From NCBI GenBank assembly GCA_944322615.1, contig CALUPH010000008.1, positions 7,003-71,002 of the forward strand: 64,000 nucleotides of DNA, in the 5' to 3' direction. The notes below the pieces were generated by a model, which saw nothing but the letters and a program-made list of their open reading frames with translations, searched no databases and was not told the origin of the DNA. A program made the translations under genes and the position numbers. Positions within the stretch are counted from its first letter, which is position 1. Every line of letters begins with the position of its first letter. Shown piece by piece: positions 400-45,479 of this stretch. The stretch comes from Candidatus Gastranaerophilales bacterium (lineage in GTDB: Bacteria > Cyanobacteriota > Vampirovibrionia > Gastranaerophilales > Gastranaerophilaceae).

Positions 400-452
400 A
401 GTTTGGTTTGTATATTTCTTTTTAATGTTGTATATTAACAATGCGAGGTATT

Positions 453-26014: not shown

Positions 26015-26023
26015 AAAGGAATA

Positions 26024-28343: not shown

Positions 28344-29011
28344 AAACCTAAAGGTTCACCTGTAAGTATTATTTTTATTCGTTTTGGTGGGTTGCAAAGT
28401 CTTGTTATTACAATATTTGAACATATTGAATCTTTTGAAGTACAGTCTTCACATATTCCAGTAGAGAAACAAGGGGTTTGTCTTAAGCCATTTCCAGCAA
28501 CTCTTTGCATATTTGTTGGTGCAGCGGTTTCTCTTGCACGTTTGATTGCATCTTGAACATTCAATGCTAATTTATTCATACCAACAATAACGATTACATT
28601 TCTTGGGCCAAACATTAAAGCTGCTGTTCTATTACCAATACCGTCAATATTAACAAGCTGCCCGTCTTCACTAATTGCATTGGTTCCCATTAAATAAGTA
28701 TCGCAAGTTAATGATTGTCGTAGTAAAGTCATCCTTTCTTCTGGATTTTGAGCTATATCTCTGTTTATAACATTATAGTTACCCTTTAATACGTGATCAA
28801 TTAATCCTATTTCAAGTACAGACATTGAACCACCCCAAGAAACAGTATCTCGTTCGGGGATTAAACTAATTGCTTTTGCAAGTGCTTCTTCTTTTGTTTC
28901 AACATAATATGCATCAAAGAATCTCTTTTTAAAATTCAAAACAACTTTTTCACCGACTTTTTTGTTTCTTTGCATTAAGTATACATTCTGTACCATAACA
29001 AAACCTCCCAA
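28340..29011 (-). CDS. LUD-domain (DUF162, LutC/YkgG-like) protein
   Basis: GTNAISEDGQLVNIDGIGNRTAAL...VIVIVGMNKL pattern typical of the LUD domain. Confidence 0.7.
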   Translation of the reverse strand: MGGFVMVQNVYLMQRNKKVGEKVVLNFKKRFFDAYYVETKEEALAKAISLIPERDTVSWGGSMSVLEIGLIDHVLKGNYNVINRDIAQNPEERMTLLRQSLTCDTYLMGTNAISEDGQLVNIDGIGNRTAALMFGPRNVIVIVGMNKLALNVQDAIKRARETAAPTNMQRVAGNGLRQTPCFSTGICEDCTSKDSICSNIVITRLCNPPKRIKIILTGEPLGF

Positions 29012-29133: not shown

Positions 29134-29748
29134 ATGGAGTTATATATGGATAAATGCATTTTCCCGGAAGGTATTCCAACTAAGGCGAAAGAAGAATTAG
29201 AAAAACTATTGAGAGGAAATCAGAATTTTGTAAATGGAACTCCAACAGCAAAAAATATGTGTTTGGAAACCTTAAGGAAATATGCATTTCACCAAGAACC
29301 ATATGCTATAGTTTTAAGTTGTTCTGATTCAAGGGTTGTTCCTGAAATTATTTTTGATTGTGGTATTGGTGAATTATTTGTTATAAGAGTTGCAGGTATT
29401 ACAGCAGGACCAAATGTTATAGAAAGTATTGAGTACGCAGTTAAAAAATTAAAGTTACCATTACTTATTTTATTAGGACATGATGACTGTGGTGTAATGA
29501 AATATGCAAAAGATCATTATCCAAATGAAACAGAAGATTTCAAATCGATAATGTCCTGTGTTTATCCGGTTTTGGATAAAAATGAAGATATAACTTGTCA
29601 TAATTATTTTGCACAGCAACATACAATATGGGTTGAAGATGTTTTGATAAAAAAATCTTCAATAATAAGAAATGCTGTTCAAAATAGCGAATTATATATA
29701 GCGAAATGTCATTTTGACCATTCAACAGGTTTGGTTAATTTAATATAA
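29134..29748 (+). CDS. Beta-class carbonic anhydrase
   Basis: CSDSRVVPE and GHDDCG zinc-ligand motifs. The real start may be the ATG at 29146 (GGAG upstream). Confidence 0.85.
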   Translation: MELYMDKCIFPEGIPTKAKEELEKLLRGNQNFVNGTPTAKNMCLETLRKYAFHQEPYAIVLSCSDSRVVPEIIFDCGIGELFVIRVAGITAGPNVIESIEYAVKKLKLPLLILLGHDDCGVMKYAKDHYPNETEDFKSIMSCVYPVLDKNEDITCHNYFAQQHTIWVEDVLIKKSSIIRNAVQNSELYIAKCHFDHSTGLVNLI

Positions 29749-29858: not shown

Positions 29859-32800
29859 ATGAAAATAAATAAGGCCGAAATGAATGTAAATGCTTTTAAA
29901 CCGAGATTTAAAAGCATAAGAACTGATAAAAAAACAGTCGAACAATTAAAAACAGGTGAAAAACCAATATTAGAAAATAATAGGCAAAATATATATGCAG
30001 CACTCAATAACTTAAGTTCTGCTTCAGACAGGACAAGTATTGAATTTCTTTTAGATGTAGCAAAAAATCTTGCATATGGACAAGGTGGAGATGATTCCGA
30101 ATTTAAAAGTTTTTTGGATGAGGAAGGGTTAACTCCGGAAAACAGAGAGAATACTGATTGGTCAAAAGTTTTAGATGATACAATAAGACGTGCATTATCT
30201 TCTTCTTTAGACAATGTTACGGATTTGGAAGCAGAATATAATGAAATTTTTAATACTAAAAAACCTTTAACAGAACAACAAAAAAAAATACTTGATTTAA
30301 GAAACGATTTTACTTCTTTAATAATAGGCGAAGATTCTTTAAAAGATTCTGAAACTTTGGCAAGAACAGCCAGAGTAAGAAAAAATCTTGATTATTTTAT
30401 TGCATCTTCCGAAATTCCTTTATCTCAAAAGCAAGAATGCCTTGAAAAATTTATTTTCTTTATGAGTGATGAATATAAAATCACTCCGCAATTGGAAGAT
30501 AAAAAATTACAAGTAATGGATGAAATGTTAAATGATATGATTGTTAAAACTCCTCAAGATGATGTTTTAACAATAAAATCCGTTGATCAACGCCAAAGTG
30601 GGATGTGTGCTGCCATTTCTATTTGTAGAAAAGCGATGGCATACGAGGATAAATCAAAATATGTTGATTTGATAATGGAAGAATTAAAAGATTCTCCGGT
30701 AATGTCTGTTTATGATGTAACAGAATTAGGCGCAGGTAAAAAAGTTGATATACCAAAAACAATAATAGATTATGATACCGCTATTGCAAAAGGTTATAGA
30801 ATTATTGATGCATCTGCTCATAATTGGATGCATAATGCTCACGCAAGCGGTGATGGAACAATTCAAACAGAATATTATGTTCCTTTTGATGAAGAAAATT
30901 ATGGAATATTTAACGATTCAAGTTGGTATCTTGGATTAGATCCAAAATATTCAAATGTAAAATCTTTGTTGATGTCTGTAATAAAAGAAAAAGAACTTTT
31001 GAAATCTTGTTATAGAGCAAGAAAAAATATGAGTGATACTTATAATAATCTTACAGCAGTTAAGAAAGAATATTATGATACTCAAAAGTCAGTTAATGGC
31101 AAATTAAGTGAAGTTTTTTCAGATATTTTCCCTGAAAAATCAAATGAGGAAATTTCAAGTTTAATTAAATCTTTAAAAGATTTTTACACAGGGAAAACTC
31201 CTGAAAATGGTCAAAATGTTCCTTCTAAGTTGCCAAAGGATGAAAAACAAAGAATAATTGCTGATTTTGTTATTTCATCTGTACCTGATATTACAGATTC
31301 TCAAAAAGAGAAAATAGTTAAAAATGCTGTTGTATTATTTGCTATGCTTGATGAGTATAATAGAAGTGAACTCCAATTAAAAAAACTAAAAAGTTTTAGT
31401 TCTCCAAGAAGCAAATATTTGTTTAATAAAAAATTATATAATGCAGCTGCAGCTCATAGAATTGCTGTTGAATCTGATGTAAATATGCCTGATGGTATTG
31501 TAAGATTTGAACGATTATCAGGATTACCCCCTAGAGATATACAAATTTCTAATTATTTAAAGTCCATAAAGTCAGGAATAAACTCTGCTAGTGTAAGACA
31601 AAGATTTATTGACGATAAAGGTAATATCCCAACTTCTAAAACACTAGAGGCAGATTTATTGTCTGATACTATAAAATTAGAATCTTTTATACCAAAAGAA
31701 CTTGATTCTATTACAAAGACATTATTTGAAAAATCGGTTACAGATTTAGTTATAACTATATTTGAAAATATTGCCCAAAATGTTAAAGAGGGTGATCGTG
31801 AAGCATTGGAAAATGTTAAAGTAACAATGGGCATAAAAGGTGACAAGCATGATGTTACAGAAAAGCTTAATAAATGGGTTCAAAAACTTTCTTCAAATCC
31901 ATCTAATGAAGAAGTATTAGACGGTATAAGACTTTTAGGCTATGAAGACAGAATGCATTTTGTGTCTGTATTTATGTCTCATTATATGCAATCCTTACAA
32001 GAAGGTATTTCTGAAGAACAATATAATAAACTTGTTAAAACTTTTGGCGGTGAAGATAAAGTTGGCTTGGGTATAGAGTCTCAACGTGAAAAATTTGAAG
32101 CATTGACAGAAGAATATAATTCAATACTTGAAAAATGGCAAATACCTTCAGCAAGAACTCAAATATTAAAACAGCTTGAAAAACAACATTTTATTGTAAG
32201 CCGTACCAAACTTGATATGTTGAAAAATCATTTTTCTTCAATAGAACAAGCAATGGTTGCTAATGAAAAAATCGAGGATTCAAAACAAAGACAAAAAGCG
32301 AATAGTAAATTATATCAGTTTACAAGTGAAGAAACAGAAATTTTTGAATCAATAAAAAAATCTCTATCAAAGATGAAAAAATATTGTGAAATGGAATATC
32401 AGAATTTAAACAATATTTTATATGATGCATTAGAGGATCAGTATTCTAATATTGGTATGTTAAACGGCCAGTTTTGGGTAAGAGAAGAAGGATCTTCAGG
32501 ATTAGCTGCGAATGAACAAATTAGAATTATTGAACAGATGACAGGTAAACCATATCATATGGAAACCGATGCAATAGCTGCCGCCGAAAAAATAAAAAAA
32601 GGAAACGGTAGTGGTATACAGTGTTTAAGTGTTGATGATTCTGATTATGCTTTTCATGCTCAGTATGTTCCCTCGGTTACTACAGAAACATTTACAAATC
32701 CGATTACAGGTAAAAAGATTATTCAAGATGTAATGTGGACAGATAATTCTTGGGGAAAAGCAGAAAAAGAATATTTCTGGAATGGCCGTAATGGATTCTT

Positions 32801-35669
32801 ATATACTGATTACGGTAATGGTTATGGCTGGAAAGATGGATTTATATTAGCTGATGATTACAAAATTGGTCTTCCTGTCAAAGATATTTATGGCGCAATA
32901 GGATACAATAAAGAAGATGGGGATAAATTTGGTTTATTCACAGATGTTGTGCTTCCGGGTGCACCAATTGATTTATACCAAAAACTATATAAAATGTTTG
33001 GTTACATTTTTAATATTGATGAAGGTAAAAAATATTATGCTGCATTAGAAAATGCTATTTCGAGCGGATATAAGATTAAAATAGATGAGCTTGAAGGATT
33101 AGATTCTGTTGCCGAAGCAAAATTAGAAATGCTTGCAAAACGAATTGACAAAGAATTGAAATCAGAAGCGGATTTTGAAAATTTACCTGATGATGACGAA
33201 CTAAAATTTGTATTTAAAAAGTTAGCAGTATATATGTCTACAAATAATCCAATGTTGGCAGATACTGTATTCTCTGTTAATAATAATAAGGATTTGGAAA
33301 CAGTAAAAGATGAAATTTTCCAAGAACATTTAGATGTATTTTCTTCTATCATTGGGAAATCAGATGAAACATTAGAAACATTATATAATTATTCATATGA
33401 TAAATTAAATTCTATATTTGATGAAATAAAAACAACATATGGTCTTGAAATTTCAGAACCTCAAAGAAAAGCAATTCTTGAAGGAATATTCTTTAATGAA
33501 GATGCGTTAGCAAAACATAATGGTACATTATCAGGTCTTGAAAAATATTTTGAAGAGCAGATAGAAAGTAATGCAATTGCTAATATTAAAGATCAAGCTG
33601 CTTTAGATTATTTTATTACGAATGCTAAAAAGATAATATTACAAAGTATAGATGAAAGAGTAAGAATAAAATCTTTAGATAGTTTGCCTATTGTTAATTC
33701 GCCATTAAAAGATGAATTTATAGCTGCCGTTGATAAATATTTGAATCCTTCTTCAGATGAAGAATTATTAACATTGATTCAAGGTTTGCAAATGGCAGAC
33801 TATGATACAGTTGATAAATTCTTTGAAGTGCTTCAACCGGAAGATATAGGTCTAAAGGAAAGAAAACCATATGATTATGTAAAAATGTATTTATCCGGAG
33901 ATTCACCAGTAAGTAAAGCATTCAGTGAGTTGATTTCATCTGAAGAGATATATAAAAACTTACCTGCTTCAAATGATGAACAAGAAGGTTCATCTCCTGA
34001 GGAGTTGTATAGAAGTTTATATGTTAAACTTTCGGAAATGGATGTACAAAAATACATAAAAGCATTTAAAGCAGAGGCTTTTCAAAAATATAAGGTAAGA
34101 CAAGCATTTCCTGAACCTGTTGTTATTTCGGATGAGTCTATTTCTAAAATAGTTGATGGTATGTATTCTTCTATAATTGAACATGTTGATAGTATAGAAA
34201 GTAGTAAATATGTTTATGAAATATTATCAAAATATCATGAAATAAATGATAAGTTTTTAACTCGACCATTATTTACTTCTTTATTAAATAGACAAGATGT
34301 TGTACCTGATGAAGAAAGTAAAGCTGTGTTTAATTCCTTTATTTCTGAAATACTTGAACTTCAGGAATTATCAGGTCTTGATCCATCATTTGAAATTATA
34401 AATGAGCCTTTAAATAAATTAATTAGTGTACTAAAATCATCTGATACTAAGTTTGAAGGCAGAGTTATAGGGCCTGTTTTAAATGAAATAATTTCAATAT
34501 TCTCAGATTTAGAGTCTACCGGAATTACAACCGATAGGTTTGTGCAATTGAAACAGGAAGAAATATCAGCTTTAAAATATAATATTCAGTTAATGGTAAA
34601 TACTAATATTGAACCAAAGTATAGAGATGAAGTTCTAAATGAAATCTATAGACTAATTGATATGTATAGAAAAGGTTACGATGAAGAAACTTTATTATTA
34701 GAAAAAGAAAAAATAAAGGATTTGGTCATAACAAAACATATTGTAAAAAATCCAACGGTCTTGTTGAAAGAATGTGTAAGATTGCTTCAAGATGGAAAAC
34801 AAAATACTGATGAGTATGAAATCCTTAGAGCATATTTGGAAACTGCTCTTCAAGTAGCACAACAGACAAAAATTCAATATAAATTAGTACAAAACCAGCA
34901 TGAAGCAATAAGTTCAAAAACAAAAGATATGCTATCTATGTTTTGTGTAACAATGAAAGACGGTAAAAGAGAAAACATGGATTCGGAAATCGGTATGTTG
35001 TACTTGATTGAACAATTGAAAAATACAGGTGATAATTATACTATATTGAACTTATTTTTAGAACAATCAGGTCTGTCACAGCAGGCATTAAATGCATTGA
35101 TTAATAATTTCGAAATACAAAAAACTAATGATTTAGTTCAAGAAAAAGCAGAAGAAATTAAAATTGATTTAGCTGCATTAGACGAGTTGGCTTCATTAGT
35201 TGGAAAGTATACTGAAATAAATAAAGGGAATATAAAATCTTTGCCTGATTCTGTTGAACAATTCAGATTATATATTGAGCGTAAGCTAAAAGGTAAAGAA
35301 AATATTTCAGTATTTTCAAAATTTGTAAATTATATTGATTCAATACAATATACAGATGCATTGAAGGATACTAACTCAACAATGATTGAGCCATTGACAA
35401 AACAAATTATAGAAGATGCACTTCAATATGTAGCTGAAGATATTAATTCACAAATGAAATATATTTCAGATATATCTTCTATGTTAAAAGAACGAATAGA
35501 ATTAATTGCATCAATACGAGTTCCTTCTGAAAGTGAAGCTTATAAAAATAGGACAGACTTCTTCCATAAATATGAACAAGTACAAAATTATATTTCAGAA
35601 GAATCTAAGAAAATATTTGATGCACTGGGAAATTCTGAATTTTTGTCAGCACAAATGATTCCTTGCTAA
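29859..35669 (+). CDS. Giant (1936 aa) protein with split C1B (aminopeptidase C / bleomycin hydrolase-like) cysteine peptidase motifs and a long helical C-terminal extension
   Basis: Uninterrupted 5.8-kb ORF with an AGGA RBS 6 nt upstream. DQRQSGMCAAIS (Cys250, codon 30606-30608), FHAQYV (His933, 32655-32657) and DNSWGK (Asn963, 32745-32747). No signal peptide or TM segment seen. Confidence 0.8.
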   Translation: MKINKAEMNVNAFKPRFKSIRTDKKTVEQLKTGEKPILENNRQNIYAALNNLSSASDRTSIEFLLDVAKNLAYGQGGDDSEFKSFLDEEGLTPENRENTDWSKVLDDTIRRALSSSLDNVTDLEAEYNEIFNTKKPLTEQQKKILDLRNDFTSLIIGEDSLKDSETLARTARVRKNLDYFIASSEIPLSQKQECLEKFIFFMSDEYKITPQLEDKKLQVMDEMLNDMIVKTPQDDVLTIKSVDQRQSGMCAAISICRKAMAYEDKSKYVDLIMEELKDSPVMSVYDVTELGAGKKVDIPKTIIDYDTAIAKGYRIIDASAHNWMHNAHASGDGTIQTEYYVPFDEENYGIFNDSSWYLGLDPKYSNVKSLLMSVIKEKELLKSCYRARKNMSDTYNNLTAVKKEYYDTQKSVNGKLSEVFSDIFPEKSNEEISSLIKSLKDFYTGKTPENGQNVPSKLPKDEKQRIIADFVISSVPDITDSQKEKIVKNAVVLFAMLDEYNRSELQLKKLKSFSSPRSKYLFNKKLYNAAAAHRIAVESDVNMPDGIVRFERLSGLPPRDIQISNYLKSIKSGINSASVRQRFIDDKGNIPTSKTLEADLLSDTIKLESFIPKELDSITKTLFEKSVTDLVITIFENIAQNVKEGDREALENVKVTMGIKGDKHDVTEKLNKWVQKLSSNPSNEEVLDGIRLLGYEDRMHFVSVFMSHYMQSLQEGISEEQYNKLVKTFGGEDKVGLGIESQREKFEALTEEYNSILEKWQIPSARTQILKQLEKQHFIVSRTKLDMLKNHFSSIEQAMVANEKIEDSKQRQKANSKLYQFTSEETEIFESIKKSLSKMKKYCEMEYQNLNNILYDALEDQYSNIGMLNGQFWVREEGSSGLAANEQIRIIEQMTGKPYHMETDAIAAAEKIKKGNGSGIQCLSVDDSDYAFHAQYVPSVTTETFTNPITGKKIIQDVMWTDNSWGKAEKEYFWNGRNGFLYTDYGNGYGWKDGFILADDYKIGLPVKDIYGAIGYNKEDGDKFGLFTDVVLPGAPIDLYQKLYKMFGYIFNIDEGKKYYAALENAISSGYKIKIDELEGLDSVAEAKLEMLAKRIDKELKSEADFENLPDDDELKFVFKKLAVYMSTNNPMLADTVFSVNNNKDLETVKDEIFQEHLDVFSSIIGKSDETLETLYNYSYDKLNSIFDEIKTTYGLEISEPQRKAILEGIFFNEDALAKHNGTLSGLEKYFEEQIESNAIANIKDQAALDYFITNAKKIILQSIDERVRIKSLDSLPIVNSPLKDEFIAAVDKYLNPSSDEELLTLIQGLQMADYDTVDKFFEVLQPEDIGLKERKPYDYVKMYLSGDSPVSKAFSELISSEEIYKNLPASNDEQEGSSPEELYRSLYVKLSEMDVQKYIKAFKAEAFQKYKVRQAFPEPVVISDESISKIVDGMYSSIIEHVDSIESSKYVYEILSKYHEINDKFLTRPLFTSLLNRQDVVPDEESKAVFNSFISEILELQELSGLDPSFEIINEPLNKLISVLKSSDTKFEGRVIGPVLNEIISIFSDLESTGITTDRFVQLKQEEISALKYNIQLMVNTNIEPKYRDEVLNEIYRLIDMYRKGYDEETLLLEKEKIKDLVITKHIVKNPTVLLKECVRLLQDGKQNTDEYEILRAYLETALQVAQQTKIQYKLVQNQHEAISSKTKDMLSMFCVTMKDGKRENMDSEIGMLYLIEQLKNTGDNYTILNLFLEQSGLSQQALNALINNFEIQKTNDLVQEKAEEIKIDLAALDELASLVGKYTEINKGNIKSLPDSVEQFRLYIERKLKGKENISVFSKFVNYIDSIQYTDALKDTNSTMIEPLTKQIIEDALQYVAEDINSQMKYISDISSMLKERIELIASIRVPSESEAYKNRTDFFHKYEQVQNYISEESKKIFDALGNSEFLSAQMIPC

Positions 35670-35710
35670 AATAAGTAAAAATATAGTAATATGTTAGCAA
35701 AGGAGAAATA

Positions 35711-35986
35711 ATGAAAAAGATTATAATTTTGTCTTGTACTTTTATCTTTTGTGCATTGACGATTTTGCCTTCTTATGCGGTAAACATAGGTACCTATAAG
35801 ACTGAAACCGAATATGGTCTATTGGACGGATTCAAGGTAAATTGGAAACGCAAAGATAAAAGCCAGCCATTTATTGAACCACGAGAAGAATCATCAAAAA
35901 AGGAAAAAGAAAAAGAATTAAATTATTATAAAGAATCAGAATACGAGCGTACAAAATTTATGTATGATGGTAAAGCTATTCTTTAG
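35711..35986 (+). CDS. Small secreted hypothetical protein
   Basis: 91 aa with signal peptide MKKIIILSCTFIFCALTILPSYA and a GGAG RBS. Lies 41 nt after the giant gene and before a terminator. Confidence 0.55.
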   Translation: MKKIIILSCTFIFCALTILPSYAVNIGTYKTETEYGLLDGFKVNWKRKDKSQPFIEPREESSKKEKEKELNYYKESEYERTKFMYDGKAIL

Positions 35987-36005
35987 TTTTGCTAAAAATT
36001 AGTAT

Positions 36006-36039
36006 AAAAAAAGAGGAACTTTTTAAAGTTCCTCTTTTT
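36006..36039. terminator. Bidirectional rho-independent terminator
   Basis: GAGGAACT / AGTTCCTC stem flanked by an A-run and a T-run, between converging genes. Confidence 0.65.
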
Positions 36040-36051
36040 AGTTTTAACTTA

Positions 36052-37797
36052 TTATAATATGTTTGAAGTAACGGTGAAGTGGAATCTACAAGTATCACGG
36101 TCTCTGCTGTTTGCATAATCTGGTAAACGCTTACCGATTGGGAAGCCCCAATACATATTTGCAGAAATATATTTAGTTAATTTAACAACAATACCAGGAC
36201 CTGCACTCATTAAATAATCAGCACTGCCATCAATAAATCTGTCACCGAACCAGCCGAAATCATAGAAACCGGCAAGTTGTATACTGTCACTAATAAATGC
36301 GTATTTTTCAGGTAGTAAAGCCTTTAATCCAGGAATTGGCATTCTGTATTCAAAGCTAGCTGTAACACCATAGTCACCAATACGGAAACCTTCATCATAA
36401 CCTCTTACACTAGCTATACCACCAAATTGCATAGCTTCTGATGCATATAAGTGTCTGTTAGCGTATTGTCCGTTAACTTGTAAAATAGCCAAATGATTTA
36501 ATGGTAAAACTTGTAAACGCGCAGCACTTGCATTTAATTTTACGAAATTGTTGCTGGACATATCTCTTGCTTTGTTATAGTCAGAAGCATCAATAGGAAT
36601 ACCGCCTGCAATACCACCATTAAATAACCATCTTCCATAGTAGTCATCTTTAACATCTGTTAAAGTAGCTCTTAGAACTCTTGTTCTGTATGCGGAATTT
36701 AACTCAGGGAAAGCACCTGAAGTCATTTCAGTGTTACGCATATCTAAAGTGATATCACCATATAATCTAAAGTCTTCGCCTTGAGCTAATCTTCTTGAAA
36801 CACCAACGAATACATCATGTGATTCACCTTTTAGATTTAAATATTTTAAAGATTTTCCAAGTCTTACATTTGAATAAGAATAACCAACATTCAATCTTGT
36901 GTCATTTGCTGCTATAGGTAAAGAGTACATACCACCAACACCAAGAGAACGAGATGATAATGCAACTGTACCCATTAAGGTATCACCATGGCCTGTTACG
37001 TCGTGTAAACCGGCATATAATACACCTCTTTGTGTTCCGATTAATTCTCTACCTTGGTTATCATATCTAATATCTAAATTGAGAGGAAATCTGTCTTTGA
37101 CATCTAATGTTACGTCTGAAAATTCTTCTGATTCTTCATTATCAGCGAAAGAAACAGCACCCTTCATGTATTCTTCAGTATTCATTTCTGTTAAAGCGTT
37201 ACGAACATCTTTAACATTTAAAATTTTACCGGGTTCGATATTATTATCTTTTAGATAATGTTTATTAAGGTAAGAAGCTCTTTCCCATTTTCCTGGATTG
37301 ATTTCAACGTTACCATATTTACCTTCCAAAATTTTAATTTCAACAGATCCGTTTTTAACTTTTTGCGGAGGAAGATAAGCAATTGTTGAAATGTAACCTT
37401 TTGCTTGATAATAATCAGTAATATCATTAGCAGACATAATCAGGTCATTGATAGTTACTTCTTGACCTATTTTAAAGTCAACCAATCTCATTAAAACATA
37501 AGTTGGAAATACCGTATTTCCTGTTATGTTAATGTTTTTAAGTTTAAAAGTAACCTGTTCGGTGTTAAGAAGTTCCATTTTTTGACGAACTTCTTCTTCA
37601 ACAACAGCAGGATCTTTTGTTTCTTCATATTTGGTTTTAGCTTGATATTGTTTTGCTTGGATAAAGTTTGTATTATCAATCAAACCGGCATCGTAACTAC
37701 CTTGATTAACAAACGTACTTCCGTCAACAGCAAATGCGCTAATCCCTATGATTGAGAAAGCACAAGCTAAAGTTGTTTTTACAAGTATGTTTTTCAT
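36052..37797 (-). CDS. Two-partner secretion outer-membrane transporter (TpsB; ShlB/FhaC/HecB family)
   Basis: Signal peptide. POTRA region FKLKNINITGNTVFP...YYQAKGYISTIAYLPPQKVKNGSVEIKILEGKYG. Conserved loop-6 VRGY motif (GGIASVRGYDEG). Beta-barrel-like C-terminus ending in an aromatic-rich strand. Confidence 0.85.
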   Translation of the reverse strand: MKNILVKTTLACAFSIIGISAFAVDGSTFVNQGSYDAGLIDNTNFIQAKQYQAKTKYEETKDPAVVEEEVRQKMELLNTEQVTFKLKNINITGNTVFPTYVLMRLVDFKIGQEVTINDLIMSANDITDYYQAKGYISTIAYLPPQKVKNGSVEIKILEGKYGNVEINPGKWERASYLNKHYLKDNNIEPGKILNVKDVRNALTEMNTEEYMKGAVSFADNEESEEFSDVTLDVKDRFPLNLDIRYDNQGRELIGTQRGVLYAGLHDVTGHGDTLMGTVALSSRSLGVGGMYSLPIAANDTRLNVGYSYSNVRLGKSLKYLNLKGESHDVFVGVSRRLAQGEDFRLYGDITLDMRNTEMTSGAFPELNSAYRTRVLRATLTDVKDDYYGRWLFNGGIAGGIPIDASDYNKARDMSSNNFVKLNASAARLQVLPLNHLAILQVNGQYANRHLYASEAMQFGGIASVRGYDEGFRIGDYGVTASFEYRMPIPGLKALLPEKYAFISDSIQLAGFYDFGWFGDRFIDGSADYLMSAGPGIVVKLTKYISANMYWGFPIGKRLPDYANSRDRDTCRFHFTVTSNIL

Positions 37798-38157
37798 CGT
37801 TCCACTCTCTATATAACTTTAAATAAATATACCACTATTTTATATATTATATATAATACTACATAAAATTAAAATTATATCAATTTTATTATACTTACTA
37901 TTCCTTTGTTTTGCATAATTTAAACATATGAAATCCGAACAAAAAAAAATTTGCTTTATAGAAACTTAAAAAATAACATATCTTAACATATTGTTCCTGT
38001 TTCATTTCAATGATTGTACAATTTCTTTAAAGTTTAAAATTAATAATAAGTTTTATTAACATTTGATATAATTGTGGCAAATAATTTTTTTAGGGATTTT
38101 AAAGCTAGCATAACAATTTTTCAAATGTGCATTTTATATCAAAGAATGGAGAATAGG

Positions 38158-39305
38158 ATGAGAAAATTATTGAGTGCAGCAGTTGCTTTTGGTGTTTTAG
38201 CCTCAACATCTTTAATGCCGATTGCCTATGCAGATGTTGCAGTGAATGCGTTACCAAGTTTGGATAATGCAATTAATGCAAATGTAACAACAAACGGTTC
38301 AAATATGAACATACAAATTCAAGGTGGGCAAGGTAGTCTAGGATCATTACAATGGAATGATTTCAATGTGGGAAAAGATGCAAGTGTAAATTACGAATTT
38401 ACAGCACACAACCAAACAGCATTAAATAAGGTTAATGCAACTGGAGGTATTTCTCAAATATATGGACAAATAACTACATCAGGCTGTGCTGGTTGCGGTT
38501 ATGACGCTACAGGTAAGGTTATATTAATCAATCCAAATGGTGTTTTATTTGGAGATGGAGCAAATGTTAATTTGAATTCATTCACTGTATCAACAATGGA
38601 TGGTGAATATGATAATGTTAATCATCAACTTCAGTTAAACAAAGGTGCTGACCAAAGTGATTTTGGTATTGTGGTTGAAAATGGTGCAAAAGTACATGGT
38701 GATAAGAATGTAACATTTGCATCAAATAACATCACTTTATATAATGGTTCAAAAATTTCAACAAATGTAGGTCCTAATGTTGCAGATACATCATATGGAA
38801 AAGTAAAATTGGTTACTGCTGATGGTGTAAACTTCTCATATTATAACAATGGTGCAATAAAAGAAATTTCTGATATTAAAGGTTCTACTGATAAAATGTT
38901 CATTTCAATTAATGGAGATATACAATCAGGAAATATTGATGTAAGAAATTATTCGACTAATGAAGCAAGTGAAATAAACTTAAAAGGTGCTACATTAAAA
39001 GCAACAAAAGCTGTAAAAGGAAATGATGGAAATATTTGGTTAACAGCATCAAACAAAATTGTAGCAGAAGATACAACATTTGAAACTGCAAATTATTCAG
39101 ATGAAGCAGCATCAAGAGAAGGCGGAAATGTAAGATTTTTAGCAGGCAAGAAAGTTTCAGTAGGAACAAGTAAAATCAATTCTGTAGGAAATGTTGATGT
39201 TACTTCTCAATATTATGATGTAGTATTAGATAAGACAGAAGTAGCAGCAGCTAAAGATGTTAATGTAAAAGCTGCAAATATTGCTTCTATACAAAATGGT
39301 TCAAA
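38158..39305 (+). repeat. Duplicated tpsA 5' segment, copy 1 (about 1.15 kb)
   Basis: Aligns by eye with 40911-42055. The 3' third (about 38941-39305) shows only a few substitutions per 100 nt. Confidence 0.85.
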
Positions 39306-40608
39306 TGTATCAGGAAAAAATGTTTCTTTAAATGGTAAAGCAAGAGCTCAAGTTAATAATTCTGCTGTTACTGCAAATGAAGATGTAAATATAGAATCTG
39401 AAGAGTTAGCTTGGACTGAAAAAGCAGAAATTAATGCAGGAAAAGATATTAATGTTAAAGCTACAAAGGGTTCTTTGTTGTTAAATAATTCATTGATGGC
39501 TGCTAAAAATAATATTAACTTGTCATCTAAAGATTCTGTATCTTCACAAAAATTGGCAGGTACTACATTTACAGCTGACAAAGATGTTAATGTGGAATCA
39601 ACAGAGGACAGTGTAATATTAACAAGTACATCTCAGTTCCAACCTAAAGCTTCTTTGAATTTGAATGCAGCAAAGAATGTTGAAATTAATTCAAAAGGAG
39701 ACTTAACAACTGAAAAAACAAACATTACTGCCGGTGAAAATGTTTTCTTAACATCTGCTGAAGGTTCAGTAAATGTTAAGGATAGCACAAAATTCTTATC
39801 TGGTAAAAAAGTATATATTCAAGGTGCAAATGATGTTAGTACAACAGGCACTGTTGATATGAATAATATTCAAACAAATATTCAAGCTGGCAATGATGTC
39901 GATGTTAATTTGGCAAATGTTGGAAACAGACAAAATGGTTTAATTGCAAAAGCTGGTCATAATATGACAGTTACAACAGACGGCACTTTATCAGTATCAA
40001 GTTTGATTTCAGGTAATGATATGACTCTTAATGCCAATAAAGTAATTGCAGGTCTTCCATATACTGATGAGACAAAATTACCTGAAGATACAGTAAGTGA
40101 ACGTTCATATATTGAAGTAGGCGGTGAGTTTACATCAAATGTTGCAAATGATAATTATGAAATCACAGCATCTGGTGAACCTACTAATGATGGTAAATAT
40201 AACCAAAAACATCATATTCAATACGGCGAAGATGAAAAAATATTATTGGTAAACAAAAGACCAAGAGATAATAATGTAACAGATCCTGATTTGGGCGATA
40301 ATGACAATGGTAATGAAATAGATCCAATAAAACCTGGAGATATTCCAACTGATCCGGATCCTTCAGAACCTGGCGACGGTGGTAACACTGGTGATGGTGG
40401 AGATGGCGGTAACACTGGCGACGGTGGTAACACCGGTGACGGCGGTGATGGCGGTAACACTGGTGACGGTGGCAATACAGGTGATGGCGAAGGCTGTGAT
40501 GATACTCCAAACGGAGATAATGTAGAAAACGAACAAACTCCTGGCTTATTATCAACTGGCGATTTGTTAAAATATTCAGTTCAAACAAATGATAAAAAAC
40601 AATTCTAA
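38158..40608 (+). CDS. TpsA-type exoprotein 1 (haemagglutination-activity/TPS domain, beta-helix repeats, Gly/Asp-rich tail)
   Basis: Signal peptide MRKLLSAAVAFGVLASTSLMPIAYA. TPS-domain motifs WNDFNVG, ALNKV, ILINPNGVLFG. GGAGA RBS before the ATG at 38158 (the track start at 38074 is a GTG extension). Confidence 0.85.
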   Translation: MRKLLSAAVAFGVLASTSLMPIAYADVAVNALPSLDNAINANVTTNGSNMNIQIQGGQGSLGSLQWNDFNVGKDASVNYEFTAHNQTALNKVNATGGISQIYGQITTSGCAGCGYDATGKVILINPNGVLFGDGANVNLNSFTVSTMDGEYDNVNHQLQLNKGADQSDFGIVVENGAKVHGDKNVTFASNNITLYNGSKISTNVGPNVADTSYGKVKLVTADGVNFSYYNNGAIKEISDIKGSTDKMFISINGDIQSGNIDVRNYSTNEASEINLKGATLKATKAVKGNDGNIWLTASNKIVAEDTTFETANYSDEAASREGGNVRFLAGKKVSVGTSKINSVGNVDVTSQYYDVVLDKTEVAAAKDVNVKAANIASIQNGSNVSGKNVSLNGKARAQVNNSAVTANEDVNIESEELAWTEKAEINAGKDINVKATKGSLLLNNSLMAAKNNINLSSKDSVSSQKLAGTTFTADKDVNVESTEDSVILTSTSQFQPKASLNLNAAKNVEINSKGDLTTEKTNITAGENVFLTSAEGSVNVKDSTKFLSGKKVYIQGANDVSTTGTVDMNNIQTNIQAGNDVDVNLANVGNRQNGLIAKAGHNMTVTTDGTLSVSSLISGNDMTLNANKVIAGLPYTDETKLPEDTVSERSYIEVGGEFTSNVANDNYEITASGEPTNDGKYNQKHHIQYGEDEKILLVNKRPRDNNVTDPDLGDNDNGNEIDPIKPGDIPTDPDPSEPGDGGNTGDGGDGGNTGDGGNTGDGGDGGNTGDGGNTGDGEGCDDTPNGDNVENEQTPGLLSTGDLLKYSVQTNDKKQF
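40372..40494 (+). repeat. In-frame tandem repeat encoding (GDGGNT)/(GDGGDGGNT) units
   Basis: PGDGGNTGDGGDGGNTGDGGNTGDGGDGGNTGDGGNTGDGEG. An 18-nt unit nested in a 45-nt higher-order unit, locally GC-rich. It creates spurious antisense ORFs. Confidence 0.9.
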
Positions 40609-40630
40609 TTACTGAATTTTAGTTTGTTTT

Positions 40631-40669
40631 AAAAACAGAGAAAATAATAAAAATTTTCTCTGTTTTTTT
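40631..40669 (+). terminator. Rho-independent terminator after tpsA1
   Basis: CAGAGAAAAT / ATTTTCTCTG 10-bp stem with a 7-nt loop, followed by T7. Confidence 0.7.
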
Positions 40670-40910
40670 GTGTAACAAATTATTAATAAAACTATATTAA
40701 TTTGTAAATTTATCAGACTAAAAGTTTTTTATATAGTATATATAGTTATAGAATTTTAAGAGAGATTTTAATTTAAATACAGTAAAAATTTGTAACAATA
40801 AAAAATAAATTGTAAACAATTTTAATGTATTTAGCAATTTTTTTTTTTAGAGTACTTACAATTAGTATAAAAGAAGAATTATTAACATGAAAAATAAAGG
40901 AAAGAAGAAA

Positions 40911-42055
40911 ATGAAAAAACTTTTAAGCACAACAATCGCGGTAGGTATTTTCGCTTCAATGAGTATTGCTCCTGTATTTGCTGATGTTTCAGCTAATGCA
41001 TTACCAAATCTTAATAATGCAATAAATGCAGATGTAACAACAAACGGTTCAAATATGAACATTCAAATCCAAGGCGGACAAGGTAGTCTTGGAACATTGC
41101 ATTGGAATGATTTTAACGTAGGAAAAGATGCAAGTGTAAATTATGAATTTTCTGCACATAACCAAACAGCATTAAATAAAGTTGATGCAACTGGTGGTAT
41201 TTCTCAAATATATGGTAAAATTACTACTTCAGGATGTGCAGGTTGCGGTTATGACGCTACAGGTAAAGTTATCTTAATCAACCCAAATGGCGTTTTATTT
41301 GGAGATGGCGCAAATGTTAATTTGAATTCATTCACAGTATCTACAATGGATGGTGAATATGACAGTACTACAAATCAACTTCATTTGAACAAAGGTTCTA
41401 ATCAAAGTGATTTTGGTATTGTAGTTGAAAATGGTGCAACAGTTCATGGCGATAAGAACGTGACATTTGCATCAAATAATATCACTTTATACAATGGTTC
41501 AAAAATTTCAACAAATGTAGGTCCTAATGTTGGAGATACATCTTATGGTAAAATCAAATTGGTTACTGCAGATGGTGTAAATTTCACATATTACAATAAT
41601 GGTGCAGTAAAAGAAATTTCTGATATCCAAGGTTCTACTGATAAAATGTTTATTTCTATCAATGGTGATTTAAAAGCCGGAAATATTGATGTAAGAAATT
41701 ATTCAACTAATGAAGCAAGTGAAATAAACTTAAAAGGTGCTACATTAAAAGCTACAAAAGCTGTAGAAGGAAATGACGGAAATATTTGGTTAACAGCATC
41801 AAACAAAATTGTAGCAGAAGATACAACATTTGAAACAGCAAATTATTCTGATGAAGCAGCATCAAGAGAAGGCGGCAATGTAAGATTTTTAGCCGGTAAA
41901 AAAGTTTCAGTAGGAACAAGCAAAATCAATTCTGTAGGAAATGTTGATGTTACTTCTCAATATTATGATGTAGTATTAGACAAGACAGAAGTAGCAGCAG
42001 CTAAAGACGTAAATGTAAAAGCTGCAAACATTGCTTCAATTCAAAATGGTTCAAA
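40911..42055 (+). repeat. Duplicated tpsA 5' segment, copy 2
   Basis: See copy 1 at 38158-39305. Confidence 0.85.
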
Positions 42056-42761
42056 AGTAAAAGCTAAAAATATTAAAGTTAAATCTGATAAAGATGCTTG
42101 GGCTTCTAATTCAAGCTTGGATGCTGATTTAATCACCATTGAAGGTGGTAATGATGTTGTAGCATACAATGTTGATTTGAATAATAAGAAGACTGTAATT
42201 AATGCAGGTAATGATGTTGATATCAATGTTAAAAATGTTGGTGAAAGACAAAATGGTTTAATTGCAAAAGCCGGTCACGATATGAAAATTAAAACTGATG
42301 GTGCGTTATCTGTTTCAAGCTTAATTTCAGGTAATGATATGACTATCGATGCAAAAGAAGTTATTTCAGGTTATGATAAAACTTCAAACATCCTTAGAGA
42401 AGAAGGTGACAGTGCAGATCGTGCATACATTGAAGTTGGCGGTAAATTTACATCAAATCCTTCTTATGAAGTTACTGATTCTGCAGACTTAACTGCTGAT
42501 GGTAAATATAATCAAAGACATCATATTCAATATGGTGATGGTTCAGAAAAAATCTTGTTAGTTACAAAACTTCCTTATACTCCACCAATTGATCCAAACG
42601 TACCGGAAGTTGAAGACGATCAAGCAACAATGTTAAACAAATTACCAAGACAACCTGAAGTATTCAACAATACAACAGTAATAAACGATGGAAGAACAAC
42701 TTTTGTGGATGTATTCGCTGCAGCTAGTCAAATAGAAATTGTTGAAGACGAAGAAGAATAA
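40911..42761 (+). CDS. TpsA-type exoprotein 2 (paralog of tpsA1 with a different central cassette and C-terminal tail)
   Basis: Signal peptide MKKLLSTTIAVGIFASMSIAPVFA and the same TPS motifs. AAAGGAAAG RBS before the ATG at 40911. Confidence 0.85.
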   Translation: MKKLLSTTIAVGIFASMSIAPVFADVSANALPNLNNAINADVTTNGSNMNIQIQGGQGSLGTLHWNDFNVGKDASVNYEFSAHNQTALNKVDATGGISQIYGKITTSGCAGCGYDATGKVILINPNGVLFGDGANVNLNSFTVSTMDGEYDSTTNQLHLNKGSNQSDFGIVVENGATVHGDKNVTFASNNITLYNGSKISTNVGPNVGDTSYGKIKLVTADGVNFTYYNNGAVKEISDIQGSTDKMFISINGDLKAGNIDVRNYSTNEASEINLKGATLKATKAVEGNDGNIWLTASNKIVAEDTTFETANYSDEAASREGGNVRFLAGKKVSVGTSKINSVGNVDVTSQYYDVVLDKTEVAAAKDVNVKAANIASIQNGSKVKAKNIKVKSDKDAWASNSSLDADLITIEGGNDVVAYNVDLNNKKTVINAGNDVDINVKNVGERQNGLIAKAGHDMKIKTDGALSVSSLISGNDMTIDAKEVISGYDKTSNILREEGDSADRAYIEVGGKFTSNPSYEVTDSADLTADGKYNQRHHIQYGDGSEKILLVTKLPYTPPIDPNVPEVEDDQATMLNKLPRQPEVFNNTTVINDGRTTFVDVFAAASQIEIVEDEEE

Positions 42762-42783
42762 AAAATAAATAATTAAAAATAGT

Positions 42784-42811
42784 AAAAAGGAGCTTTAAAA
42801 GGCTCCTTTTT
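42784..42811 (+). terminator. Rho-independent terminator after tpsA2
   Basis: AAAAAGGAGC / GCTCCTTTTT stem with an 8-nt loop and a T-run. Confidence 0.65.
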
Positions 42812-42873
42812 ATTTGACTTCATCGTTTATATTAATATAACATATAATAAGTATTAAGAGGTGTTTTGGTTTT

Positions 42874-44622
42874 ATGAATTTAAAATTATGTTGTTTAATT
42901 ATGATACTTACAATTGGTTCTTCTGCTTTTGCTGATGCGATAATAAATCGCAGTCCAACTAGAAGTAGTGCAATACAAAATTCAAGTATTATATTTAGTA
43001 ATTATGATAGCATTTATAAAGACGAGTCTTATAATCCTGCAATTAAAGAAATACAAGACAAAATAAAGAAAAATCCAAATGATTATATTTTATATGTTTC
43101 ATTAGTCGATTTATATATAAAATCAAAAGATTATGATAATGCATATAATGAATTAGTATTCCTGGCAAATTTAGCAAGGCAAAATAAATTAAATTCAACA
43201 GTAATGAATTATGTAAATACCGTGTATGAACATAATAAAAAGTCTGCAAAATATTCAAGAAACAAAGGACCACTTTGCTTAGATTTGTCTTTATTGGCAT
43301 TTATATTAGATGATAAAGAGAGTGCTGAGTCATATATAAATATAGCCTCTAATTATTCATTGAATTCTAATTTATTATCAAATACTCTTAAAATAATTTT
43401 TGATAGCACAGGAAATTTAGAAAAAGCGGTATCTGTATGTGGAAAAGTGATTCTTAAAAATCCAAATGATATTGATTTACGAAAACTGAAAGCCTCATAT
43501 CTTGTTCAAAGTCAGAATTTTGATGCAGCTATTATTGAATATGCAAGTATATTAGATATAAATCCAAATGATGAGGATTCAAAATATTCAATATATAATT
43601 TATTATCACAAAAAGGTGCAGATGAAAAAGAGATAATTAAACAAATATATAAAACAGATAAACCGAATTATGAAATTGTATATTCAGAATTTGCAGATAT
43701 GCTATTAAACAGAGAAGACTTTGATGCTGCTGAACATTACGCTGATATTTTAGTTAATAGTTTTCCAAATAATGCAAAGGGATATATTTTATTATCTGAA
43801 ATTTATATGAAAAAGGGAAAACTTAGAGAGTCTTATGATGTTTTAACAAAAGCAAGAGACAAAGCTGATAGTAATGAATTAATTGCAAAATATAATGTTT
43901 TGCTGGCAAAGTTGTCTGATGAACCTGTAAAAGAGGCAAATTCCTTAATTTCTGCAGGATTATATCAACAGGCACTTGATGTTTTAGACAGCGCAAGCCA
44001 AGAAAATTTATATGTTATATTAACTCAGGCAAGAGCTAATTATCTTTTGAATAATAAGCAGGCAACTTTTGAACTTTTAAATAAATCAATGATTTTATAT
44101 CCAAAAAATTCAGATGTTTATTGTGCTTTTGGTTACATATATTTGCAAGAAAATGATTTAGAAAGTGCAAGAAAGTATGTTAATAATTCATTAAAGATAA
44201 ATCCAAAAAATAAAACAGCTTTAGACTTACAAGATTTACTTAATAGTGCAGAATCACAGAAGTATATAAGTTCAATAATTTCTTCTTACGAAGCCCAAAA
44301 TTATACAGAATCTATGCGATTGGTTGATGAAGCACTTAAAATAAATAAAAAAGATTCTACCTTATATTTTTATAAAGCATTAAACTATATAGCACAAAAT
44401 AATTATGCAGCTTCTACTGCACATTTATATAAATGTTTGGAACTGGATAAAAATAATATACAGGTTTATTTTTATTTAGGGCTTGCTTTTGATAATTTAT
44501 CCGAGTCTGAAAATGCTTTGACGTACTATAGAAAGTTTATAGAATTATTGCCAAAAGATGATTATGGTGAAAGTGAAAAACTTGATTATGCAAAAGCCCG
44601 TATAAGTAAATTGCAAAATTGA
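42874..44622 (+). CDS. Secreted TPR-repeat protein
   Basis: Signal peptide MNLKLCCLIMILTIGSSAFA, then many 34-aa TPR-like repeats (Y..A...Y...L..NP pattern). Confidence 0.8.
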   Translation: MNLKLCCLIMILTIGSSAFADAIINRSPTRSSAIQNSSIIFSNYDSIYKDESYNPAIKEIQDKIKKNPNDYILYVSLVDLYIKSKDYDNAYNELVFLANLARQNKLNSTVMNYVNTVYEHNKKSAKYSRNKGPLCLDLSLLAFILDDKESAESYINIASNYSLNSNLLSNTLKIIFDSTGNLEKAVSVCGKVILKNPNDIDLRKLKASYLVQSQNFDAAIIEYASILDINPNDEDSKYSIYNLLSQKGADEKEIIKQIYKTDKPNYEIVYSEFADMLLNREDFDAAEHYADILVNSFPNNAKGYILLSEIYMKKGKLRESYDVLTKARDKADSNELIAKYNVLLAKLSDEPVKEANSLISAGLYQQALDVLDSASQENLYVILTQARANYLLNNKQATFELLNKSMILYPKNSDVYCAFGYIYLQENDLESARKYVNNSLKINPKNKTALDLQDLLNSAESQKYISSIISSYEAQNYTESMRLVDEALKINKKDSTLYFYKALNYIAQNNYAASTAHLYKCLELDKNNIQVYFYLGLAFDNLSESENALTYYRKFIELLPKDDYGESEKLDYAKARISKLQN

Positions 44623-44683
44623 TTTATTTTTACAATCTTTGACATTTGTACACAAACATGTTCAACTTTGCTATTATGTAGTA

Positions 44684-44929
44684 ATGGATATCTTAAAGAC
44701 ATTTGAAATATTTTTATCAGCACCAATAAGTATAATTCATAAACGTAATATTAAAATTATGCATATTGAAACGAATATTTTTGCTCAAAAAATGCCTGTT
44801 GATATCAGTTTTGATGATGATATACAGTTGACCGTTTACAATAACAAAAAAGTATATAAATTACTATCCAGTGTCATATATAAGAAAAGATTAAAAGATG
44901 AAAATAACAAAAGCAAAGTTTCTTACTAG
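44684..44929 (+). CDS. Doubtful small ORF upstream of engB
   Basis: Only an open frame in an otherwise empty 275-bp gap. No clear RBS, and it overlaps the engB start. Confidence 0.2.
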   Translation: MDILKTFEIFLSAPISIIHKRNIKIMHIETNIFAQKMPVDISFDDDIQLTVYNNKKVYKLLSSVIYKKRLKDENNKSKVSY

Positions 44930-45479
44930 TGCACCTACCATAAAAGAATGTCTAGAACTTCAATTGCCCGAAATTGCATTAATTGGGCGTTCTAATGTAG
45001 GTAAGTCATCTTTTATTAATGCTCTTGTCAATATAAATGGACTTGCAAAAACAAGTAATACTCCCGGAAAGACAAAATTAATAAATTTATTTAATATTAA
45101 TGATGAATTTATTTTTGCTGATTTGCCGGGTTACGGATATGCAAAAGTTTCAGGGAAAGTTCAAAACCAATGGCAAAAAAGTTTAGAACAATATTTGTTA
45201 AAAAGAGAGTCTCTTGTTTCTTTGATTCAATTAATAGATTCAAGACACCCCATACAACAAAATGATTTGCAAATGGCGGAATGGATTAAATATAATAAAC
45301 TTCCTTGTTTTGTTGTTGCAACAAAAGTTGATCAAATTTCACGTTCTAAAATTCTAAATACTTGCAAGAGTTTTGAAAAAGAACTTGATTTACCTGTCTT
45401 TCCTTTCTGTAAAACAGAAAAATATTACAACCAAAAAATACTTGATAAAATTGATGAAATAATAAAATTATCCCACTAA
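44898..45479 (+). CDS. engB: Ribosome biogenesis GTPase YsxC/EngB
   Basis: KAKFLTSAP...PEIALIGRSNVGKSSFINAL G1 motif and DLPGYGYA G3 motif. Confidence 0.9.
   Translation: MKITKAKFLTSAPTIKECLELQLPEIALIGRSNVGKSSFINALVNINGLAKTSNTPGKTKLINLFNINDEFIFADLPGYGYAKVSGKVQNQWQKSLEQYLLKRESLVSLIQLIDSRHPIQQNDLQMAEWIKYNKLPCFVVATKVDQISRSKILNTCKSFEKELDLPVFPFCKTEKYYNQKILDKIDEIIKLSH

Follow-up and report, generated by a model that had tools for sequence, protein, structure and literature searches.

Papain, a member of the papain-like peptidases (MEROPS clan CA, family C1), carries the pair Gln19/Cys25 and, further along the chain, an Asn175-Ser-Trp-Gly motif. In two-partner secretion (TPS), as in the FhaC/FHA, ShlB/ShlA and HMW1B/HMW1 systems, an Omp85 barrel with ShlB-type POTRA domains (TpsB) is encoded next to its substrate (TpsA), which has a Sec signal peptide, a TPS domain with an NPNG motif and beta-helix repeats. 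The signal peptide and the TPS domain are both required of TpsB substrates (review PMC5422565), and third partners known in such systems include the glycosyltransferase HMW1C/EtpC (PMC3983070) and BcpO (PMC5422565). Both kinds of protein bear on a 15-kb locus in a 64,000-nucleotide stretch of DNA (the window) from a gut Candidatus Gastranaerophilales bacterium, a lineage of non-photosynthetic cyanobacteria, where a gene for a giant protein and a gene for a 91-residue secreted protein (sp91) lie beside tpsB, two tpsA genes (tpsA1 and tpsA2) and a gene for a tetratricopeptide repeat (TPR) protein. An earlier interpretation, made from the letters of the DNA only (the sequence-only reading), had proposed that these genes might be one module, with the giant protein as its cargo, processing enzyme or partner. 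The comparative analysis does not bear this out: homologs of the giant gene occur without adjacent TPS genes, and the locus is rearranged in relatives. The best explanation is that two functionally independent units, a TPS-TPR module and a giant-sp91 pair, lie side by side, and this explanation as a whole is given a probability of about 0.78.

In the window, the giant gene (29859-35669, forward strand, 1936 aa) is followed by sp91 (35711-35986, forward, 91 aa). Convergent to these is tpsB (36052-37797, reverse, 581 aa), which is in turn divergent from tpsA1 (38158-40608, forward, 816 aa), behind which stand tpsA2 (40887-42761, forward, 624 aa) and the TPR protein gene (42874-44622, forward, 582 aa). 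The gene order and coordinates given by the sequence-only reading agreed with the open reading frame (ORF) list, from which the giant gene and sp91 are taken, and with domain scans, which found POTRA_2 and ShlB in TpsB, the TPS domain in both TpsA proteins, and Pfam TPR families together with a signal peptide in the TPR protein. For comparison, one genome per GTDB species was surveyed; relatives of the giant protein were found in 179 genomes, and 80 loci (L numbers below) were retained, which come from Gastranaerophilales, Melainabacteria, 'Vampirovibrio', cyanobacterial metagenome-assembled genomes (MAGs), or unlabelled or apparently mislabelled MAGs. The window proteins were compared with the retained loci by tblastn, and a hidden Markov model (HMM) was built for each protein from the loci and used to rescan all six-frame ORFs. 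In most of the first 43 loci (giant protein identity of about 31% or more) that had enough flank, tblastn showed the entire stretch to be collinear, in the order flagellar hook-related gene, 241-aa gene, LUD-domain gene, beta-carbonic anhydrase gene, giant gene, sp91, tpsB, tpsA, TPR gene, small ORF, engB and, further on, RNase E/G. Because the whole stretch is collinear in related loci, the 15-kb locus is conserved core chromosome backbone of this family and not an accessory island. At 0.27-0.36, the GC content of the locus does not differ from that of the remaining window, and the label "accessory-looking" in the sequence-only reading fails on this uniform composition and on the identical position of the locus in related genomes; a mobile or accessory island was rejected on the same two grounds.

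Among the closer relatives, 31 loci, each with at least 1 kb of downstream sequence, were scored for downstream TPS genes, and tpsB came directly after sp91 in 26 of them. The other five (L008, L011, L031, L033 and L040) have the giant gene without downstream TPS genes; in L008, L011, L031 and L040, sp91 still adjoins the giant gene, both flanks differ and the TPS genes are absent. In the distant clade (giant protein identity 24-30%; downstream flanks of 1-10 kb, mostly 8-10 kb), the HMM rescan detected neither tpsB nor tpsA in the downstream flank of about 35 loci, and the giant gene neighbours housekeeping genes (anmK, pfk, pheT, ABC-F, thymidine kinase) or a TrmB-like regulator. Two loci at about 30% giant protein identity, L067 and L085, have an sp91-tpsB-tpsA-TPR block that two inserted genes separate from the giant gene. 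Furthermore, in a single assembly (GCA_016282705.1), the giant gene and sp91 are on contig JAEELO010000011 (L011) and the TPS block is on contig JAEELO010000049 (L090). The L090 block, which was found from the TpsB side through the homolog P0319, consists of tpsB divergent from two tpsA copies, followed by the TPR gene, the small ORF and engB, with neither the giant gene nor sp91 within 8 kb; the same TPS block is joined to yet other neighbours in L091 and L092. The break always falls between sp91 and tpsB, at the bidirectional terminator. A genome comparison had been named by the sequence-only reading as the test that could refute it, and that comparison, when run, revealed both giant homologs without TPS neighbours and rearrangement of the locus.

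Two further arrangements were observed around this junction. A pair of CoaE-like and GH57 (840-aa) genes, located at 441-3558 in the window, 26 kb upstream of the giant gene, abuts sp91 in L008 (10279-13353) and lies about 2 kb beyond tpsB in L090 (11577-14682); this relocation suggests that inversions have happened repeatedly, with the sp91/tpsB terminator as one of their ends. In L049 (7738-11300), the giant gene is followed by a gene for a TPR-like protein (HMM E 4e-86), the small ORF and engB, with sp91, tpsB and tpsA absent between, which means either that this genome lost its TPS genes or that the other lineage gained them by insertion between the giant and TPR genes.

The TPS genes and the TPR gene, on the other side of that junction, stay together over much larger distances. 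Wherever a locus had tpsB and sufficient flank, tpsA lay beside it in divergent orientation, and this held down to a TpsB identity of 50%. At that level of identity, the TpsB homologs of L087-L089 adjoin rpsP, a glycosyltransferase gene, murJ and spoIID, in surroundings that lack the giant gene, sp91 and engB; tpsB is divergent from tpsA there, and a 700-aa TPR protein is encoded directly afterwards. The TPR protein of L087 aligned collinearly with that of the window over 392 residues (25% identity, E 4e-23), and the TPR gene was always downstream of tpsA, including in the distant contexts L085 and L087-L092. The conserved unit consists of the TPR gene, tpsB and between one and three copies of tpsA, and the grouping of the TPR protein with the TPS genes by the sequence-only reading holds, the triad being intact in distant genomes and unrelated contexts. 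Conversely, sp91 stays with the giant gene where the TPS block lies elsewhere, and it is absent next to tpsB in L087-L092. Of the associations that had been envisaged, those of the TPR protein with TpsB/TpsA and of the 91-aa protein with the giant protein are supported; the link between the giant protein and the TPS genes is not supported.

All three terminators proposed by the sequence-only reading are present in the gaps of the locus as hairpins with T runs: a bidirectional one between the convergent sp91 and tpsB (36008-36039; 14-bp stem with T/A runs on each side; dG -17.1 kcal/mol), one after tpsA1 (about 40631-40667, forward strand; dG -15.2 kcal/mol) and one after tpsA2 (about 42781-42814; dG -17.5 kcal/mol). 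A generic terminator scan was not enriched over shuffles overall (4 observed against 4.8 expected), and these three carry weight because their positions coincide exactly with intergenic gaps. No terminator separates the giant gene from sp91, which starts 41 bp after it, and the two genes are probably co-transcribed. The sp91 product itself, first recognised as a small secreted protein in the sequence-only reading, is real and strongly constrained: in an alignment of 35 homologs, the N-terminal signal peptide varies and the Ala-X-Ala cleavage site is conserved, and the mature part of about 68 aa is almost invariant over the 35 loci (NIGTYKTETEYGLLDGFK-NWKRKDK…PFIEPREES…EYERTKYMYDGKAIL), in which the giant protein falls to 35-50% identity. 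The sp91 family, whose 176 clusters nearly all have a length of about 91 aa, occurs only in the closer clade; no sp91-like small exported ORF was found after the giant gene in the distant clade. In five loci (L062, L068, L070, L074 and L079), a 274-aa gene with a TrmB-like N-terminus (MADLVEKLKEIGFNTYEAKVY…) lies 2-17 bp after the giant gene, with which it possibly forms one operon; other clades are without it there.

The giant protein (1936 aa, 221.5 kDa) is acidic, with an isoelectric point of 4.9. It has no signal peptide and no transmembrane segment, its N-terminus (MKINKAEMNVNAFKPRFKS...) is without a hydrophobic core, and its maximum 19-residue hydropathy is 0.93; no TPS domain was detected with Pfam or NCBIfam. 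The full protein matched nothing in Pfam, NCBIfam, PADLOC or the PDB sequences, where only calmodulin came near threshold (E > 0.1). In a collection of 5.8 billion proteins, 347 homologs were found, almost all 1.9-2.0 thousand residues long, the few named ones being 'Candidatus Gastranaerophilales' hypothetical proteins; many homologs of the distant clade have 1786 aa or about 2150 aa. An exhaustive HMMER search of 1.84e9 representatives with residues 225-1045 returned 152 clusters (50% identity), all of them giant proteins or fragments, and no small unsplit relative. Judged by these searches, the family is closed and restricted to Gastranaerophilales/Melainabacteria, and no description of it was found in literature searches.

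AlphaFold2 models were built with an alignment of 69 sequences. The model of residues 1-1150 reached a predicted local distance difference test score (pLDDT) of 87.9 and a predicted template-modelling score (pTM) of 0.79, and that of residues 1100-1936 (33156-35666, forward strand), the C-terminal all-alpha half, a pLDDT of 85.5, with helices only. In these models, the protein is almost wholly alpha-helical, apart from beta-containing regions at residues ~281-357 and ~899-1033. The first belongs to the Cys half of a predicted split papain-like core (30564-30938, forward, aa 236-360), and the second to its beta-rich His/Asn half (32553-32978, forward, aa 899-1040; strands 919-1033); between the two halves lies a helical insertion of about 535-570 aa (30942-32543, forward; helices H362-H895). 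The insertion is poorly conserved (0.40-0.53). Conservation peaks in the two beta-containing regions and the residues preceding them, one peak being at aa 201-350, and nearly all invariant residues lie inside these peaks. Q244 (30588-30590), G248, C250 (30606-30608), H933 (32655-32657), D962, N963, W965 and G966 are invariant in the 69 sequences (about 29-77% identity), and the N963-S-W-G motif begins at nucleotide 32745. By DSSP of the model, C250 is at the N-terminus of helix 250-263 and H933 is in a strand. When the N-terminal model was compared with the PDB by Foldseek, the sole high-probability matches were falcipain-2/3 (probability 0.93-0.99); in viral structures, the same model had helical matches to tape-measure and SMC-like proteins only, all at low probability. 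The best PDB match of the C-terminal half had a probability of 0.10, and no credible structural relative was found for these C-terminal 840 residues.

The giant protein thus resembles the papain-like peptidases in its Gln-x5-Cys spacing, with the Cys at a helix start, and in a strand His that precedes Asn963-Ser-Trp-Gly (compare Asn175-Ser-Trp-Gly); the catalytic order Gln...Cys and then His...Asn(-Ser-Trp-Gly) is present. It differs from them in having no PF00112 match, no PDB sequence or profile match and no signal peptide or prodomain, in a core that the ~570-aa helical insertion divides and that lies within an all-alpha protein of 1936 aa, and in belonging to a closed family with no small relatives. 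It was not filed as a member of family C1 because it does not share sequence similarity with that family. The term "peptidase-like", which the sequence-only reading had applied to it, is upheld at the level of motif and fold, but Pfam, NCBIfam and the PDB sequences gave no match. It is concluded that the giant protein is lineage-restricted and most probably contains a papain-like (clan CA) catalytic core split by the helical insertion, and there is a moderate probability that it works as a cysteine hydrolase. In the proposed mechanism, it would most likely be an active clan-CA cysteine hydrolase with a very large alpha-helical scaffold that holds its two catalytic half-domains, and it would stay in the cytoplasm.

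Other explanations of the locus were weighed against that of two independent units. A single integrated module of the surface or effector kind, in which the giant protein served TpsB/TpsA as cargo, maturation enzyme or partner and sp91 and the TPR protein were accessories, would account for the giant-sp91-tpsB-tpsA-TPR order in 26 of 31 closer relatives, for the retention of these genes within 3 kb in L067 and L085, and for the one bidirectional terminator common to sp91 and tpsB. Yet the two units are found on different contigs of one assembly, the giant gene has no TPS genes nearby in 5 closer and about 35 distant relatives, and the TPS triad exists with no giant gene nearby. The housekeeping flanks are also equally well conserved, and because they are kept wherever the adjacency is kept, the adjacency reflects general synteny and not a specific link; conserved adjacency over moderate distances with such flanks is synteny, not evidence of a module. 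Moreover, the giant protein has neither the signal peptide nor the TPS domain that TpsB substrates need (PMC5422565) and is therefore not a classical TpsB substrate, and, if cytoplasmic, it is unlikely to process a periplasmic or surface TpsA. The integrated module is accordingly regarded as largely refuted. Export of the giant protein as an effector or toxin by a route independent of a signal peptide (for example flagellar type III export), with sp91 as its periplasmic or extracellular partner, would fit the fliJ-, fliK- and flgD/E-like genes 2-4 kb upstream, the secreted and tightly linked sp91, and the fast evolution of the helical parts, which show 35-90% identity against 71-98% for TpsB; rapid change is frequent in surface or effector proteins. 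Against this, in L031, L033, L040 and the distant clade the giant gene has no flagellar genes beside it, neither an export signal nor a chaperone was identified, and the giant gene, which is apparently single-copy (one match per retained locus), in a conserved core position and widespread in the order, is unlike typical effectors; such export is improbable.

The giant protein might instead be a non-catalytic structural scaffold with a cytoskeletal or organising role, its papain-like fold being a relic used for binding only. More than 80% of the protein is helical and repeat-like, it has no enzymatic relative and no profile method recognises a peptidase in it, all of which would suit a scaffold. 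Pseudo-enzymes normally lose catalytic-type residues, though, and here Q244, C250, H933 and N963/W965 are invariant in 69 sequences at about 29-77% identity, and the two half-domains are the best-conserved parts of the protein, which leaves the scaffold with a small share of the probability. The explanation preferred here, two independent units with a papain-like giant protein, also has evidence that tells against it. The units are still neighbours in 26 of 31 closer relatives and remain within 3 kb of each other even at about 30% giant protein identity (L067 and L085), and random gene order usually survives less long than this; sp91 sits exactly between the units, and in L067 and L085 it adjoins tpsB and not the giant gene. 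A loose functional or regulatory tie between the units could therefore exist. As to the giant protein, the falcipain match spans ~155 columns, about half of falcipain, with a target template-modelling (TM) score of 0.31 and E 0.1-0.3; no sequence or profile method ties the protein to any peptidase family; and its probable cytoplasmic location is deduced only from the lack of any known export signal. When the Cys and His halves were joined into one profile, the PDB sequences yielded nothing but spurious matches to antibody light chains, and Pfam yielded no match.

The annotation of a two-partner secretion system by the sequence-only reading was confirmed by Pfam and TIGR01901 matches. TpsB matched PF08479 (POTRA_2) at 4.9e-19 and PF03865 (ShlB) at 1.3e-18, both above the gathering score, and is an Omp85-family transporter with POTRA_2, a ShlB barrel and a signal peptide. 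The TPS domain PF05860 was matched by TpsA1 (1.3e-14) and TpsA2 (5.1e-16), TIGR01901 was above its cut-off for both, and both contain 'ILINPNGVLFG', the NPNG motif. Across the clade, TpsB is 71-98% identical, on par with housekeeping proteins, and TpsA and the TPR protein diverge faster. The ORF list starts tpsA1 at a GTG at 38074; the true start is probably the ATG at 38158, after GGAG, which gives 816 aa and a normal signal peptide that ends in ...PIAYA before DV. With this corrected start, the 360-bp AT-rich divergent region described earlier between tpsB and tpsA1 (37798-38157) stands as the presumed promoter region, in which promoter-like matches were not above chance.

TpsA1 has a signal peptide, a TPS domain with INPNGV, beta-helix repeats and a Gly/Asp/Asn-rich repeat tail. 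It shares 81% identity with TpsA2 over the first 437 aa and a second common block near the C-terminus. At the 3' end of tpsA1, a 45-bp tandem repeat (40370-40489; 2.7 copies, 88% match) encodes a low-complexity tail of the (GDGGNT)n type, which is absent from TpsA2 and is likely a site of length variation. TpsA2 keeps the ancestral-type C-terminus of the family (…LPRQPE…AAASQIEI). A TpsA of the distant clade (L087) is 33% identical overall to TpsA2; the two have in common the TPS domain and, towards the C-terminus, …RAYIEVGG-KF…, …LPRQ-E… and …AAA--IE-. The block with …LPRQ-E… and then …AAA--IE- (42500-42761 in the window, 6490-6700 in L087) is replaced in TpsA1, and it could be a motif peculiar to these TpsAs that retains or anchors them.

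These features match those of FhaC/FHA, ShlB/ShlA and HMW1B/HMW1: the ShlB-type POTRA domains and Omp85 barrel of TpsB; the Sec signal peptide, TPS domain and beta-helix repeats of the TpsAs; the adjacency of the genes; and also the duplication of tpsA with variable C-termini. The system differs from them in its short TpsAs (624-1050 aa) and in the periplasmic TPR protein consistently encoded behind tpsA. The domain content points to ordinary type Vb secretion of TpsA1 and TpsA2 through TpsB, in which the two TpsAs would be exported by Sec, their N-terminal TPS domains would be recognised by the POTRA domains of TpsB, and the chains would be threaded through the TpsB barrel to fold into beta-helical surface or exo-proteins. 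The TPR protein, likewise predicted to be exported by Sec, would act in the periplasm, where it may be a holding or docking factor for the pathway, as BamD is on BamA. The analogy, and it is no more than one, is that an Omp85-superfamily protein is encoded together with a Sec-exported all-TPR protein; unlike BamD, the TPR protein is 582-700 aa long, has no lipobox and matches no BamD model, and in NCBIfam it matched only generic TPR families, all below the cut-off. A TPR partner is not mentioned in the 2017 TPS review, and literature searches found neither a description of TPS in Gastranaerophilales nor a TPR partner for TPS. Contact-dependent inhibition (CdiBAI) was considered and rejected. 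Unlike such systems, this one has no toxin/immunity pair: no VENN motif and no Pfam domain beyond TPS, hence no toxin domain, was found in TpsA1 or TpsA2, and the ORF list and intergenic sequence hold no ORF, and so no immunity ORF, between tpsA1 and tpsA2 or between tpsA2 and the TPR gene.

The housekeeping flanks claimed in the sequence-only reading, beta-carbonic anhydrase (29134-29748, forward strand, 204 aa) and EngB (44898-45479, forward, 193 aa), were both confirmed by Pfam, which also identified a LUD-domain gene (28340-29011, reverse, 223 aa) farther upstream. The first 32 nt of engB are shared with the end of a small ORF (44639-44929, forward; 96 aa, or about 81 aa if counted from the ATG at 44684). 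Its product matched no known family and keeps 63-98% identity in related loci, where the ORF is always found between the TPR gene and engB. The TPS-TPR block is apart from engB in L087 and L089, and the small ORF and engB are housekeeping genes that are part of neither unit in distant genomes. Upstream of the LUD-domain gene, a 241-aa protein (27618-28343), conserved at 34-83% in that position in most related loci, matched nothing in Pfam or PADLOC, and one segment ('...YSGIGTALVNAAV...') resembles, by eye, the acetyl-CoA-binding motif of GNAT acetyltransferases. Just upstream, at 25553-27501 in the window, are FliJ-like, FliK-like and hook FlgD/E-like genes with weak to moderate Pfam matches; a 278-aa hook-related protein, 83-100% identical across related loci, is the most conserved protein in the neighbourhood. 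A defence system was rejected as an identity for the locus, which is widespread and syntenic; PADLOC models matched none of the giant protein, sp91, the TPR protein or the upstream 241-aa protein. In L089 (12620-21744), seven tandem paralogous ORFs of about 148 aa lie next to tpsB, followed by terminase and capsid genes, and this array looks like a prophage or phage-like element with repeated genes. Seven loci (L009, L012, L021, L031, L033, L044 and L048) come from records titled 'uncultured Muribaculaceae bacterium' despite the Melainabacteria-specific giant gene, with typical Gastranaerophilales synteny; these records are probably mislabelled or mis-binned.

Beyond the separation of the two units, a further proposal, to be taken jointly in both its parts, is tentative and rather doubtful: that the giant protein is the founder of a new clan-CA cysteine hydrolase family with a lineage-specific core function, such as separase- or calpain-like regulated intracellular proteolysis, accompanied in one clade by the exported sp91, and that the TPS system of this order is an obligate three-partner variant that needs the periplasmic TPR protein. 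What remains new about the locus is an unclassified giant protease-like family and a constant TPR partner of a TPS system, both in predicted roles. Gut Melainabacteria have not been cultured, and their cell biology is almost entirely unexplored. In a giant protein that occurs in at least 179 species-level genomes with no family match, the conserved protease-type active site offers structural and biochemical studies a concrete target. The TPR gene that constantly follows tpsA, in turn, suggests a dedicated periplasmic helper in some type Vb systems, which would extend the 'two-partner' model.

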